A stretch of 64,000 nucleotides of DNA from a virus. The stretch lies in IMG/VR virus record IMGVR_UViG_3300042273_000448; one strand, 5' to 3'. Below, one piece after another: positions 54,001 through 63,000 of the stretch; within the stretch, counting starts at the first letter, position 1; every line of letters starts with the position of its first letter. Made by a program: the position numbers.

Positions 54001-57000
54001 TAGCAGACAATATGGACGATGAAAGATATAAAAAAAATGTATATGATTATGTATATAACTTTCCGGTATATGAACAAGATGAATTAAAAAAATCTTTTGC
54101 CTTAGAATATTTCGATTCAAAAGACAAAATAAATGATTTCTTATTAAATCATGAAGATAATGATTGAAGATTAAAATATCTTAATAGAGCAGGATACTAT
54201 ACATCTAAGGAAGCTACTGAAAATATTGCGGAATATTTAGATCGAAATTCTTTCATGATTGGAAAGTTATATGACGATTATGGAGTAGATGCCCTAATAG
54301 AATATTTTAAGAATGATAATGTTCAAGGGGTTTGGGATAAAATTAGTTCTGGTAAAAGACTTTTAAATAAGACCAATAGTCTTGAATATATCATGTTAGA
54401 TATGTTATCTGATAAAGATAAACTTCAAAAACTTGATGATCTATTAGATGCATTTCCTAATAAAATTGCTAATTCATTAGTTAATACATTGAAAGATCAA
54501 CTTTTGATTTATCCACTATTAAAAGATATTTTCAATGATGATAACCCTTTAAAACCCTCAATTAAATTAACCCCTTCTAGAATCAAAACATTATTGAAAT
54601 ATAATAACTTTGAATTTAAGGGAGCAATGCTTAGAAAGAAGCCAAGAGAAAAATGGGCAGATTACTTTGTGCGTGTTGAACAAGTATTAAAGGGAGATGC
54701 TCTCATTCCAGATATCAATTTGGAAAAAATTGAGGAAACTCAAGATCAGCTTAATGAAAAGTCTGTTGAATATTCTAAATATTATAATGGAAAACATGGA
54801 AATTCTGCTGTTGAATTTATTGAATCCTTTAATGTTAATATGAAATATCCTGAATTTGATCAATTTAGAACAAGATTTGGAGCTAGTGAACTTATTCCAG
54901 CTTTCCATGCTTCAGGATTAACAGCATCAAACTTTATTTTAAGATTTGGGTTTACTGTTATTCCTGCAAACGATTCTTCTACTGTTGGCAGAATGCTTGA
55001 TATTCATAATATGCTTTTAGTTAAACCTAAAAGTGATGGAGATGCTATTGAAGAGTCTAATGATTATATTGAATATTTAGAAAATGGATATTTTCCTGTA
55101 TCATCACGAGAATCTGGTAAACGAGTTACATATAGTGATTATCCAACAGATTTATATCATTGGAGAACAATAGATACTGTTGGTGGAATTTATGTAACTA
55201 ATGTTATTGAAAAGGCTGCTCAATATCTTGGAGATGATGGTTACTCAAGAAGAGAAGGAACAGTTGGGACAATCTATGAATGTGAAGTAAATCTAGGGGA
55301 TTATGGACTTCATCATCATGTTGCAGGTACCGGAAACGACTCAATTCGTTCTCCCGAATGAGCAATTTGTTGACCTCAAGCTCAAATTAACATTGTAAAA
55401 GCTCATAAAGTAATGTTCACAAATAAGAAAAGAATTAAAGAACTTAAAGCTAAATATCCTAATGCTTTAAAAGAAAACAAGTATTTTAAACGATTTGCAG
55501 ATTATCTTCAGGAGCAAGAAATGATTAAAAGTAAAAATGTTATTACATTTGTGTTTCATCAGTGTACAGTACCAACTGCTAAAGAAATTATGCCTTGGGA
55601 AGATTTTGAAAAGAAAGTTATTAAGAAATCTAACAAGATGTATGTTGATTCAAATCAGTTTGGTATCGGTATAACCTTCCATACGGATAAAGATCTTAAT
55701 GGTGTAGTTCGAGTTCCATTTACTGATGAGTTTATGGTAGATGACCCCGAAGGTTTATATTCTCAGTTTCTGATGTTAGTTGATGAATGTAAAGGTTAAG
55801 GAGACGGGAGCTTCGGCTCCCTTTCATTATGACACAATTTATTAAATTTTTGAGAATGGATCTAAAGAGTGGTGATTCTAAAAGGTCCTATTTTGGAAAG
55901 GCGGCTGCTGGTGCCATTGTATATGCTAAAAAGGAAAAAGCCTTCCTAGTTCTTCAAAGACAAAAAGATACTATAGACGGATGGAAAAAAGTCAAAGAGG
56001 CAGGAACTTGAAGCATTGTTGTTTCGGGAAAAGTTGATGATTCTGATAAATGACCAAAAATAACAGCCAAAAGAGAATTTAAAGAAGAACTGCGATATAA
56101 TGGCACCTTTAAAATTTCAGAAAAACCATTTGATATTTTTGAGGATGGAGATTTTACTTTTACAACCTTTATAATAACTGTGGATGAGATATTTGAACCA
56201 AAGTTAAATTGGGAACATTCAGCTTATAAATGAATTACATCTTTTAAAGATATTCCTGCGCCTATTCATTTTGGAACAAAAAGAATTTTAAAGAAGTTGC
56301 AAATCAAATACAAAATGTAATTTGACTAATAAGTTATACATTAAGCTCTTTAATGAGTTATATGTATAACTTATTAGTCATTTTTCCTAATTAGAGAATT
56401 ACTTCTCCAGTTTCTTCATCAATCATTTCTTCCAATATAAATTTTTTACATAACTTTAAATTTTCTTCAAATTTATCTTCTGCTCATACAGTAAGAATTT
56501 TATAACCAGCATTAATAGCGATATTATTTTTAAAGGCGTCCCTTTCAAGTGCTTTAATATAGTCACATTCTTTGTCTCAAACATGCCTTCATTGTTCTTT
56601 TTTATCTATAGATCATGTATCTCTTACATGAGATCCATTGCCATTATATTCTATTATAAGTTTATCAAATAATGTAAAATCAAACATAAATCTATTTTTT
56701 CTATTATTGTATGTTATACACAATTCAGAACTTTCTGGTATACCACATTTAATATCTTTAAAATCTGCAATATTCTCTTCAAATAATCAATCTATCAATT
56801 CATAAAATAACTTTAAGGATTCTTTGGAAACCGACCTAGTATTTCCTGATGATCTTTCACAAAACAAATTATATCTTTTTATGCCCTCATCTTCTCCATA
56901 TCTATCTATAAAATTGTGTAAATTTTGTTTTGATTTTTCTCTAAATATGGTATGTCTTCTAGTTCCTTCTTCCTTTCCATATATTCTAATCATATTATCT

Positions 57001-60000: not shown

Positions 60001-63000
60001 AGACTCAGTTCAGAAATAGCATTTGCTTTGTATTCTTCAAGCTTCTCAATCTGAGCTTTTCTTTCTTCAATTCTATTTTTTTCATTTTCAATCTGAGAAA
60101 GAAGAAGATCTCTATTGTACAATGAGGCCCTTTCCTTCATTTCTTTCAATTTTGAATTGCAATTAAATACAGTATTAGAGAATTTTTCTTTTGTTTCCTT
60201 TAGAGTCTTAATAGATTCCATAATCTCTAAATACTTACTATTTTCTTCAATTACTTTTGTTAATCTTTCAATTTCAGATTCATAATACTTATAATCCATA
60301 TTAGATTTTTTAATATCATTATGCTTAGAAATAAGGAGGTTTTCCTTTTCTTCTACTTCAGTAAGCTCCTTGTTTAATCTATCTTTTTCTTTTGCTTTGT
60401 GTTCTCTAATAGATTCATTATTCATTTTAGATCCACAAATAGGACAATTATCAAGATCTTCATATTGCCCTTTTTGTGAGACCTTTTTCAGATCTGAAAG
60501 GATGGATTCTTTCTTTACCTTATAATCGAAACACTCATCATAAAGAAGCTTTTCAAGTTCCTCATCGTAGTTTACACTAGTAAAATTCTTCTTACATTCT
60601 TCTAACTTGTCAGCAGCATTAGGGTCATAACTAATTCCCTTTAGAAGAGCATTCTTTTCTGAAAAAGCTATTTCAGCTTTATTTTTAACTACTTCAATAT
60701 CTTTAATCTTTTGTTCATATTTCTCAATATCTTCTTTTGAAGGAAGATCATCCGGGATATCGTTGAGTTGTTCCTGAAGTAACTGTAAGTGAGTATCTGA
60801 AATGTCAATACTTCGAATATCAGAAGTGTATTTTGAAACATTTATTTCTAATGAAGAAATTCTCTCTTCATTTTTCGAAACAGAAGTTTTGTTCTCTAAT
60901 ATTGCACTATCAATATTAGAAACTTTTTTATTAATCTTATTCTTTATATCTGAGTATGCTTCAAGATTGAAAATGTTCTCTAGAAATTTTCTTTTCTGAG
61001 CTTTAGGAATATCAAAGATTGAAACGAAGTTATTTGGATTATAATAGAACAAGGAAATAAAGGTTTTGTAATCAATTTTCAAAATTTCTTCTTCGAGATA
61101 TTTTTGAAAATCTGTGACAGAAGCTAAAGAATCAAGTTCTTTATCGCCCTTGTAAATTTTTAGAACATTAGGTTTGATTCCTCGTTCAATCCTATATTTA
61201 ATCCCATCAATAGAGAATGAAATTTCTACCAAGCATTTTTTCTTATTCTTCCAATTTACTATTTGATCTTTAGTAATATCTTTAATTGTTTTGCCAAACA
61301 ATGCCCAAACAATACTTTCATTTAAACCAGATTTCCCTGCTCCATTTGATCGTGAAGTATCCTTGTTTTGCCCTGAGATCAAAGTCAGCCCGTGGTCAAT
61401 TTTAAATGTTGAAACATTAGATCCATATGATAGAAAATTCTTTATCTTGACTTCTTCTAAATGAATTATAGACATTTATTATTCCTTAAAAAACAAATTT
61501 TCATTTACATAACGGTTTCTTAATTCCATTAAAATAAAGCCTAGATGATTATGTTTTACTTTTACTTTTTTACATTTTTCACATTTACATACACCCCAAA
61601 AATTATCATGCCATAAGTTTCCTTCGATTAATATATAGGGGTGTGTTGCTATAAGTTTTTCTTTAATACTCTTATTATATTCAAATTTTTCATATATAAT
61701 GTCTCTCATTATTTGAACTTTTACATTATTCCAATCTTCTCTTAATGTCAATTTCTTCCCTATTTCTTTGACAAGATGGGGAGTAGGGCAATCTATAATC
61801 CATTTTTTCTCTTTTGGATCAAGGGTTTTGGATGCTTGATAAGCATGTTCAGCAGTTTTCCATACAATATCATTATATAGAACAAAGGAAAAATAAAAAT
61901 TACTTAGAAAGACATGTTCTCCCCTAAAAGTTTCAATACTGTTTTCATCAAATATATTATAGATAGTAGACATTAAAAGTTACCTCACTGTCTCCAAATA
62001 CATATTTAAGTTGTTCCTTAACTGCGGGCCAAGATAACCTATCAAGCCCACAACCAATTTTAGGCATATAGACTTCTGTAATGATGTTATTTCTCATTAC
62101 CTCTGCCATATTTTGGAGTGCAAAGCACATAGACTCATAAGAGGGTTTACCGGAACTTCGTCTTTTTGTTACAATATTTAATACTGGGGAAACATAATAA
62201 GTTTTCCCTACTTCAAGAACTTCATTTCGAAGTCTTTTAATTTGTGGATAATTTTTCACAAAATCAACCGCAATACCAGCACCCATTTCAGCATCTGCTG
62301 CAATACAATGAGCAACCACAGTATCTTTTTTAACAAAATTGAACAGGTTTCCCTGAGTTTCATTGATTATCATTATTTGAATTCCTCATAGTTATACTTA
62401 TATCCATTTGGAATATAATATTCTTCATGCTCATAAATGTTAACCATACCATTATAATATGCGTTTAAGGATTTTGATGCTGAAATACAAAAAGGCGTGT
62501 CACCAAAATCCCATACAGCCTTTACAAATTTAACTTTAAAAGAATATTCATCATCCGTGGAATTGTCTTCTAATATTTCAATTTCACCAATAAGACCGGA
62601 TTCTTTATATTGGTATCTTTTTCCAACCTCAACAAAATCCCAGCCACCATTATGCCATGTTGCCATAATTTACACCCCCTTAATTTACATCACCAAATGA
62701 CATATCTTTATCTTCTGAATCAATTACAATTTTTGCACCATATAAATGTTCATAGTAACCACACCAAAATGGATAAAGTTGATATTCTCTTTCTCCATCA
62801 TCATGAAGTAATTTGATAGCATAATCATATCTTGAAGTTGCTTTATAAAAAGTTGCTTTAACGCAAAACTTAGGAACATTTTTTAACCATTTCTCTTCAT
62901 TTACATGAGGAGGTTGGGTTGCATATGTAAACCATTCGTAATGTGCTTTGATTCTTTTTAGATTCTTTTTAGCAATATCAAGATTCTTCCATTCATACTC

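Follow-up and report, generated by a model that had tools for sequence, protein, structure and literature searches.

In the DarTG systems, the toxins ADP-ribosylate single-stranded DNA (ssDNA) at different bases, DarT2 at thymine and DarT1 at guanine; the first modification is reversed by DarG2, a macrodomain protein, and the second by DarG1, a NADAR protein (PMC5179494, PMC11543638). Hydrolysis of thymidine-linked ADP-ribose on ssDNA is shared by DarG with TARG1 and with fly Targ1/3 (PMC12879935, PMC5179494). TARG1-family enzymes prefer ssDNA for this substrate, on which NADAR is inactive (PMC12879935). Four NADAR subtypes, including YbiA, all remove guanine-ADP-ribose in vitro, and none of them removes thymine-ADP-ribose (PMC11125620); NADARs are also reported to reverse cytidine ADP-ribosylation (PMC12945103). 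Phages carry enzymes of both kinds. Three divergent lineages of phage NADAR, referred to as “AdfN”, neutralise DarTG1 (PMC11825919), and a chimallivirus macrodomain, “AdfM”, neutralises DarTG2 (PMC13309987). These counter-defence roles were shown separately, in other phages, in 2025 and 2026. Earlier, in 2022, Iyer et al. reported fusions of NADAR and macro domains in DNA viruses, together with above-chance co-occurrence of macro, NADAR and Nudix genes in large myoviruses, where the two domains also co-occur with ADP-ribosyltransferases (PMC9503650). Here, we describe a pair of genes encoding a macrodomain protein and a NADAR protein in the metagenomic, T4-like phage IMGVR_UViG_3300042273_000448, of which a stretch of 64,000 nt (“the window”) was analysed.

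The window has the same two domains as the proteins surveyed by Iyer et al., but as two overlapping genes rather than as a fusion; the macrodomain is of the TARG1 type, the NADAR is of the YbiA type, and the pair lies in a recombination operon. We propose, with about even confidence, that the two proteins form a two-enzyme counter-defence against DarTG-type systems, a role that we assign by homology. The added value is modest. It lies in three features: the particular combination of subtypes (TARG1 for the macrodomain, YbiA for the NADAR), encoded by genes that overlap within a recombination operon; the unit formed nearby by a PARP-like transferase and a Nudix hydrolase; and the recoding of TGA to Trp in this genome. 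The coordinates of all features are collected in Table 1.

The macrodomain protein scores below the cut-off of the Pfam Macro profile (PF01661; 17 versus 22 bits) and is not placed in the family by that profile, whereas many of its homologues have a precomputed PF01661 match. The domain call made in the initial annotation is nevertheless supported in other ways. A phmmer search aligns the protein with human TARG1/OARD1 over its whole length (expectation value, E, 1.4e-23). The AlphaFold2 model has a predicted local distance difference test score (pLDDT) of 91.9, and Foldseek searches with this model return TARG1 first, with template-modelling (TM) scores of 0.85–0.90 and 36–37% identity. Next in rank are the Thermus and M. 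tuberculosis DarG macrodomains (TM 0.80–0.83), ahead of Poa1p, SCO6735 and viral macrodomains. By sequence comparison and modelled fold, the protein is unambiguously a TARG1/OARD1-type macrodomain, despite its sub-threshold Pfam score. Lys76 and Asp111, which correspond to K84 and D125 of TARG1, do not vary among 21 aligned homologues, and the protein is predicted to be an ADP-ribosyl glycohydrolase with these two residues as its catalytic dyad. With human TARG1/OARD1 (C6orf130) it shares its length, its fold, the Lys/Asp dyad, and the motifs GCGLDRL and HCI(A/S)xD. It differs in being encoded by a phage; its substrate is presumably phage DNA, and not protein glutamate or telomeric DNA.

DarG models match the macrodomain protein as well, with 42.9 bits for NCBIfam DarG (cut-off of 250; positions 1–146 of 338) and 50.6 bits for PADLOC DarG (positions 2–143 of 329). 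These matches cover the macro part only. Because a DarT-binding domain is absent from the predicted protein, it is not a DarG2. What it has in common with DarG2 and with the AdfM of chimalliviruses is the TARG1/DarG structural clade, the catalytic lysine and a match to the DarG hidden Markov model. The window protein and AdfM are both stand-alone phage macrodomains, and their likeness is one of clade. The window protein is nearer to TARG1/OARD1 (37% identity, TM 0.9) than to DarG (18–23% identity, TM 0.8); it has no DarT-binding domain, and a phage nucleus plays no part. Macrodomains of this type are found in 243 phage records, and also in conjugative elements.

The NADAR call of the initial annotation holds by a wide margin in Pfam (PF08719, 92 bits versus a cut-off of 35.1, E 6e-26, positions 9–161 of 163) and also in NCBIfam (TIGR02464, 83.8 versus 73.7 bits); PHROG 1017 matches too. 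Among proteins of solved structure, E. coli YbiA (2b3w) matches best, at 60.8 bits. With the NADAR of Escherichia phage HildyBeyeler, the window protein shares 35.9% identity (E 3e-17). We take HildyBeyeler to be the BASEL phage Bas33, i.e., a carrier of the AdfN-Bas32 type. When the window protein is aligned with P. nicotianae NADAR (8BAU), five residues are kept, namely E42, K49, E117, D123 and W126, and their counterparts in 8BAU contact ADP-ribose or take part in catalysis (Schuller et al., PMC11543638). In that study, one signature position separates the subfamilies: YbiA has Glu, DarT1-linked NADARs have Asp, and T4-type phage NADARs have His. The window protein has Glu117 at this position, equivalent to E125 of P. 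nicotianae, and lacks an N-terminal extension of the fold, with only ~18 residues ahead of the NADAR core. By its sequence, it therefore belongs to the NADAR superfamily and, within this, to the YbiA subfamily. It is not a DarG1, having Glu in place of Asp and no basic, ssDNA-binding N-terminal extension. The AdfN proteins of T4, Bas32/33 and Bas60 resemble it in being free-standing, in their length of ~160 amino acids, in having no adjoining DarT and in their conserved active site. They differ from it at the signature position, where T4-type phage NADARs have His (PMC11543638), and in the coupling of the window gene to a macrodomain gene.

Both open reading frames (ORFs) are intact under the standard bacterial code, and their adjacency and overlap, already noted in the initial annotation, are exact: the genes share 17 nt, with the NADAR start codon lying inside the macrodomain gene. 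The ATG of the macrodomain gene in turn shares one base with the stop codon of the 97-amino-acid gene ahead of it. A GAGGA Shine-Dalgarno sequence is located ~10 nt 5′ of the macrodomain ATG, and the NADAR gene has its own Shine-Dalgarno sequence, GAGG. We propose that the two genes are translationally coupled. Only 3 nt past the NADAR stop codon begins a gene for a gp46/SbcC-like ATPase, which is followed by a 148-amino-acid gene and by the gene for a UvsX-like recombinase, the last of the run. By its gene content, this minus-strand run is a DNA-recombination operon. Among the flanking genes scanned there is no transferase gene, such as the darT1 that would adjoin the gene of a DarG1. A long hairpin (63124–63090) precedes the run, between it and the upstream SPFH gene; promoter and terminator scans of the window were at chance level overall.

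In the mechanism that we propose, the two proteins would act during infection as coupled ADP-ribosyl glycohydrolases that differ in chemistry and share ADP-ribosylated nucleic-acid bases as targets. The Lys76/Asp111 dyad of the macrodomain would free ADP-ribose from thymine, the DarT2-type product; this substrate is suggested because TARG1 and then DarG are the closest relatives by sequence and fold, and because the Lys and Asp are invariant. The NADAR protein, a predicted N-glycosidase, would use its YbiA-type Glu/Asp site to cut the link between ADP-ribose and guanine, the DarT1-type product, and perhaps that to cytosine as well. Produced together with the gp46/SbcC-like and UvsX-like proteins, the two enzymes would prevent ADP-ribose from persisting on replicating phage ssDNA, and DarTG abortive infection would be defeated. 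The pair would amount to an AdfM-like and an AdfN-like activity in one operon. We favor a counter-defence role because of the overlap, the separate Shine-Dalgarno sequences and the tight packing with recombination genes, because the linkage recurs in two unrelated elements (L010 and L025, below), and because the same phage carries Tad3 and Acb3.

Several points weigh against this role. Protein-glutamate-ADP-ribose and O-acetyl-ADP-ribose are also substrates of TARG1-family enzymes. The pairing is no general rule: a NADAR gene lies within 5 kb in only two of 80 IMG/VR loci with this type of macrodomain gene. TIGR02464, whose curated cut-off the window NADAR exceeds, bears the name riboflavin biosynthesis intermediates N-glycosidase. 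The window NADAR is, as judged from Glu117, of the YbiA type and is without the ssDNA-binding extension that DarT1-linked NADARs have at the N-terminus. E. coli YbiA has the same signature, likewise has no fold extension and, unlike the window gene, belongs to a LexA-controlled host operon; neither it nor T4 gp30.3, when expressed alone, rescued cells from DarT1 (PMC11125620). The validated AdfM is DarG2-like, whereas the window macrodomain is TARG1-like (PMC13309987). Finally, Iyer et al. compared macro, NADAR and Nudix proteins of phages, fusions of NADAR with macro among them, and proposed on this basis that they degrade small molecules derived from ADP-ribose (PMC9503650). The initial annotation had put the pair forward as a candidate counter-defence against DarT-type toxins, to be checked by subtyping the macrodomain (DarG-like or MacroD) and the NADAR with profile searches. 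The subtypes found, TARG1/DarG clade and YbiA type, favor this hypothesis, and the published AdfN and AdfM proteins fit it. Its weaker side is that the role comes from homology only and that YbiA gave no protection from DarT1.

Comparison with other genomes indicates that the two genes are linked recurrently but loosely. In the nearest relative, IMGVR_UViG_3300028601_000019 (L007), the NADAR gene is kept (75% identity), whereas only residues 65–138 of the macrodomain remain. An ORF for a TnpB-like protein of 393 amino acids (4791..5972 of L007) takes the place of the N-terminal half of the macrodomain gene and of the two small genes upstream. The resulting macrodomain pseudogene adjoins the intact NADAR gene, and an extra gene of 106 amino acids is inserted between the NADAR and SbcC-like genes. 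Loss of one gene with retention of the other fits accessory genes that act independently. Apart from L007, the only IMG/VR locus of the 80 with a NADAR gene nearby is L025, where the NADAR and macrodomain genes are ~0.9 kb apart with one ORF between them. In L010, an unrelated plasmid- or phage-like element, a NADAR gene is directly followed by a macrodomain gene, the opposite of the order in the window. With two of the 80 IMG/VR loci and one non-viral element (L010) as the only such cases among those examined, general adjacency of the two genes was rejected. Other homologues of the macrodomain gene adjoin an SSB gene in a conjugative element or lie in an integrase-bearing island. The comparisons thus indicate that the linkage has recurred independently and is not obligatory, each gene being able to stand alone, as would be expected if both were accessory genes for counter-defence.

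The window also encodes a giant protein of 1401 amino acids that was absent from the initial annotation. Its C-terminal part, about 54700..55480, holds a PARP-like ADP-ribosyltransferase domain (pART) of the H-Y-E type. Searches with this C-terminal region (tblastn) matched 37 cultured-phage records, with E down to 6e-26; homologues come from the Aeromonas Aeh1 group, Stenotrophomonas Menderavirus, Ralstonia RSP15, Pseudomonas pf16 and Xanthomonas BUDD/X1, and several of them are annotated as ADP-ribosyltransferases or as having a PARP catalytic domain. On its own, the window protein has no Pfam PARP match, a phmmer search of PDB with the transferase region found nothing, and a profile built from code-11 fragments found nothing either. 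The code-11 fragment stops just short of the catalytic Glu, owing to a TGA codon, and its AlphaFold2 model is poor (pLDDT 49). The link to PARP was seen only once four standard-code phage homologues had joined the profile. The resulting five-member family profile matched only PARP1/2/3 and tankyrase chains in PDB (E 2e-6), and hhalign of the family against PARP1 (a sequence 100% identical to 6m3i_B) gave 90.7%, with an aligned segment that covers the His and Tyr motifs only. All three motifs, FHASG (His), GGIYV (Tyr) and SPEW (Glu), are conserved, in this order, in the five phages. The protein belongs to the PARP-like (ARTD, H-Y-E) class, and the region therefore holds a writer as well as erasers.

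Members of this transferase family are typically 1150–1430 amino acids long, with a range of 492–1876 among 45 IMG/VR loci. A 2005 study identified the Aeh1 member, p141, as a PARP-like transferase (PMC1266365). The family of p141 and the 1401-amino-acid protein are alike in size, in carrying the domain at the C-terminus and in their H-Y-E motifs. They differ in that the window protein has an insertion of ~60 amino acids inside the domain (between GRML and GGIY, and absent from the four cultured-phage homologues), in its TGA-encoded Trp residues, and in having a Nudix gene as a neighbor instead of an ADP-ribosylglycohydrolase gene. In Aeh1 (L091 1152..2033) and its relatives, the ADP-ribosylglycohydrolase gene is directly upstream of the giant gene; the two constitute a writer/eraser pair that, as far as we have seen, is unstudied. 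More generally, Pfam searches of the four flanking ORFs at 44 of 46 other IMG/VR loci place the transferase gene among T4-type replication genes (DexA-like, gp32, RegA and DNA polymerase), with an ADP-ribosylglycohydrolase gene beside it only in the Aeromonas (Aeh1) group.

The Nudix gene begins 30 nt downstream of the giant gene. The interval between the stop codon of the transferase gene and the Nudix ATG is exactly where a GC-rich hairpin with a TTCG loop falls (GGGAGC-TTCG-GCTCCC, 55806..55821, plus strand), followed by a T-rich run; from its sequence, this hairpin could be a terminator, an attenuator or an RNA-stability element. Under the standard bacterial code, the Nudix frame stops at a TGA after 60 codons. 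The coordinates given in the initial annotation are right, provided that TGA codons 61, 75 and 135 are read as Trp; the translated protein then scores 43.5 bits against the Pfam NUDIX cut-off of 21.1 (PF00293) and matches PHROG 1198 (MutT/NUDIX). Seven of nine homologues have 160–165 amino acids, and all nine keep G67, K68, D70, R82, E83, E86, E87 and W135, which include the REx2EE core. The Nudix box reads G67-K-V-D-D-S-D ... R82-E-F-K-E86-E87, with Asp replacing the first Glu of the consensus GX5EX7REUXEEXGU. In NCBIfam, no equivalog matched and no model of ADP-ribose pyrophosphatases, the subgroup of T4 NudE and NudF, and PDB gave no match; weak matches are to dihydroneopterin triphosphate diphosphatase (19.7 bits, NCBIfam) and to four phage entries annotated MutT/NUDIX. 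Of the three-gene cluster of ADP-ribose-processing genes initially described, the NADAR/macrodomain pair stands, and the Nudix gene does not belong with it: it is 5.2 kb away, on the opposite strand and in another transcription unit. It forms a unit with the PARP-like transferase gene of the phage, separate from the pair, and an explanation built on two erasers does not need it.

The presence of a writer raises the question of whether the erasers serve ADP-ribosylation by the phage itself. In such a scheme, the PARP-like transferase would modify host or phage macromolecules, the macrodomain and NADAR proteins would strip off-target or unwanted ADP-ribose from phage DNA, DNA ends or proteins, and the Nudix hydrolase would clear the released ADP-ribose. 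An H-Y-E domain is indeed encoded 6 kb from the pair, and the adjacency of the transferase and Nudix genes is kept in L007 and in the relative L095. The Aeh1 homologue adjoins an ADP-ribosylglycohydrolase gene, and some transferase-bearing phages of Stenotrophomonas, Xanthomonas and Ochrobactrum carry a NADAR gene far off in the genome (IME-SM1, Bhz51, BUDD, X1 and vB_OspM_OC). We consider the scheme unlikely all the same. The erasers belong to another operon, located on the opposite strand, and none of 46 other IMG/VR transferase loci searched by tblastn has a NADAR, macrodomain or window-type Nudix gene within 10 kb, so that general linkage of the PARP-like gene to these genes was rejected. 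The co-occurrence of transferase and NADAR in the same genomes (four of ~7 lineages) was also rejected as evidence, since roughly every second phage of medium or large size carries a NADAR in any case and there is no enrichment (PMC9503650). A fuller version, which we regard as quite improbable, has the TGA = Trp genome encode a complete ADP-ribosylation circuit, with the giant transferase as writer, the TARG1-type macrodomain and YbiA-type NADAR as erasers and the Nudix hydrolase as degrader. The erasers would then mainly manage the DNA modification of the phage itself, e.g., by protecting or uncapping DNA ends or ssDNA in recombination-dependent replication, and the countering of DarT would be secondary. 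If this were true, two chemically distinct erasers would be co-translated with the recombination machinery.

The remaining alternatives concern the substrate. The pair could degrade small ADP-ribose-derived molecules of host immunity rather than macromolecule adducts, with cyclic ADP-ribose isomers (TIR/Thoeris), ADP-ribose-1″-phosphate and sirtuin-derived O-acetyl-ADP-ribose as candidates. Besides the comparative proposal cited above, this would suit the TARG1 family, which was first characterised as an O-acetyl-ADP-ribose deacetylase (the molecule name in PDB), and a phage whose Tad3 gene suggests that its hosts probably use Thoeris-type signals derived from NAD. It is an improbable explanation, given that all phage NADARs and the phage macrodomain assayed to date target DNA adducts and work against DarTG (PMC11825919, PMC13309987), that the phage is already equipped with an inhibitor dedicated to Thoeris, and that the operon partners are DNA recombination proteins; in the literature that we consulted on the NADAR and macro families, we did not meet cleavage of cyclic ADP-ribose signals. 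Alternatively, the target could be RNA or protein modified by host transferases other than DarT, such as CmdT-type modifiers of mRNA or Tre23/YarT-type modifiers of RNA. A myxobacterial NADAR of the YbiA type serves as antitoxin to YarT, a transferase other than DarT (PMC11125620), the reported activity of NADARs on ADP-ribosylated cytidine points the same way (PMC12945103), and TARG1 is discussed in a paper on uracil-linked RNA ADP-ribosylation (PMC13036486). With a context of DNA metabolism and no direct tie to such systems here, we rate this as quite unlikely. Lastly, the genes could belong to ordinary metabolism, with the NADAR protein as a YbiA-like N-glycosidase of riboflavin intermediates and the macrodomain and Nudix proteins as nucleotide housekeeping enzymes, as the TIGR02464 score and the weak resemblance of the Nudix protein to MutT-type entries would allow. 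This is very improbable: riboflavin damage control is of no obvious use to a lytic T4-like phage, YbiA removes guanine-ADP-ribose in vitro (PMC11125620), and the tight coupling to a TARG1-type macrodomain gene would be left unexplained.

Judging from its reading frames and alignments, IMGVR_UViG_3300042273_000448 has a code-4-like genetic code in which TGA is read as Trp. Three observations support this: (i) in the SPE-W motif encoded by the gene just ahead of the Nudix gene, the W codon is TGA and aligns with a Trp that is invariant in four standard-code phages; (ii) Trp135 of the Nudix protein, also TGA-encoded, is invariant in nine homologues; (iii) in the NADAR gene of the close relative, two of five conserved Trp codons are TGA where the window has TGG. 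When the window is re-tiled with only TAA and TAG as stop codons, the gene map is compact and gap-free, and TGA accounts for 93 of the 260 Trp positions. Many long genes need this reading to stay open, including those for the Nudix hydrolase and the giant transferase and the frames 56391..57881 and 26811..28916. The eight tRNA genes do not include a tRNA-Trp(UCA). Two blocks, 20897..25412 and 59002..63973, are free of TGA; in the second, TGA is used for none of the 22 Trp codons, which is significant within the window. TGA avoidance in the operon may be an early-gene mark, but it is not conserved in L007, which uses TGA in its NADAR and SbcC-like genes.

Table 1. Features of the window, with the matches on which they are based
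Feature	Coordinates	Strand	Match or basis
T4 beta-glucosyltransferase-like protein	1046..2158	−	Pfam, 76.8 bits
Eight tRNA genes	11225..13302		
Tad3 and Acb3 genes, adjacent, within a TGA-free block	21918..22526 and 22526..23227	− (both)	Pfam: Tad3 (Thoeris inhibitor), 128 bits; Acb3 (CBASS inhibitor), 175 bits
Giant protein, 1401 amino acids, seven TGA = Trp codons	51594..55799	+	Homologue of Aeh1 p141
Nudix hydrolase, 163 amino acids, three TGA = Trp codons	55829..56320	+	Pfam NUDIX; PHROG 1198
UvsX/RecA-like recombinase, three TGA codons, last gene of the run	57940..58989	−	Pfam RecA, 65.9 bits; PHROG 97, 172.7 bits
gp46/SbcC-like (Rad50-type) ATPase	59448..61475	−	PHROG 77, SbcC-like subunit, 348 bits
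NADAR protein, YbiA subfamily, 164 amino acids	61479..61973	−	Pfam PF08719; TIGR02464
TARG1/OARD1-type macrodomain protein, 138 amino acids	61957..62373	−	phmmer; AlphaFold2/Foldseek
Small gene, 97 amino acids, operon head	62373..62666	−	No Pfam or NCBIfam match
Small gene, 130 amino acids, operon head	62680..63072	−	PHROG 10176 (unknown function); no Pfam or NCBIfam match

The window as a whole is phage-like, with a G+C content of ~30%, and comes from a JGI metagenome contig of 137.5 kb. T4-type markers outside the regions described above are a beta-glucosyltransferase-like protein, a DenV-like protein, SegE and UvsW; the first suggests a glucosyl-hydroxymethylcytosine-type modification of the phage DNA. 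A megablast search with 55000..64000 gave no cultured-phage match. Tad3 and Acb3 are known anti-defence families, and their presence implies that this phage invests in counter-defence. TGA-rich proteins are encoded on the minus strand at 56391..57881 (nine TGA codons), 16935..18239 and 6080..7474. Proteins of the 56391..57881 type combine a C2H2-like zinc finger at the N-terminus with some ten YGEEEGTRRYNE-type repeats in tandem and, at the C-terminus, a nuclease-like module, and they look like homing endonucleases in their predicted organization. The copy at 56391..57881, between the UvsX and Nudix genes, is missing from some otherwise identical contigs (L002 and L005). At 25447..28916 (minus strand), a gene resembling the terminase large subunit is, as judged by eye, seemingly split or interrupted by intein-like and GIY-YIG-like segments, with 10 TGA codons in the upstream part of the region.

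For annotation, the lesson is that this genome should be translated with TGA as Trp; otherwise, the Nudix, recombinase and 1401-amino-acid transferase genes look broken. If the two-enzyme counter-defence proposed here is correct, one short operon would provide resistance to both known classes of DarTG, the thymine-modifying and the guanine-modifying. Counter-defence by macrodomains would be widened from the DarG2-like type to the TARG1 type that is widespread in phages. This would help to forecast which phages escape DarTG hosts, and it would offer compact, base-specific DNA de-ADP-ribosylases as reagents.

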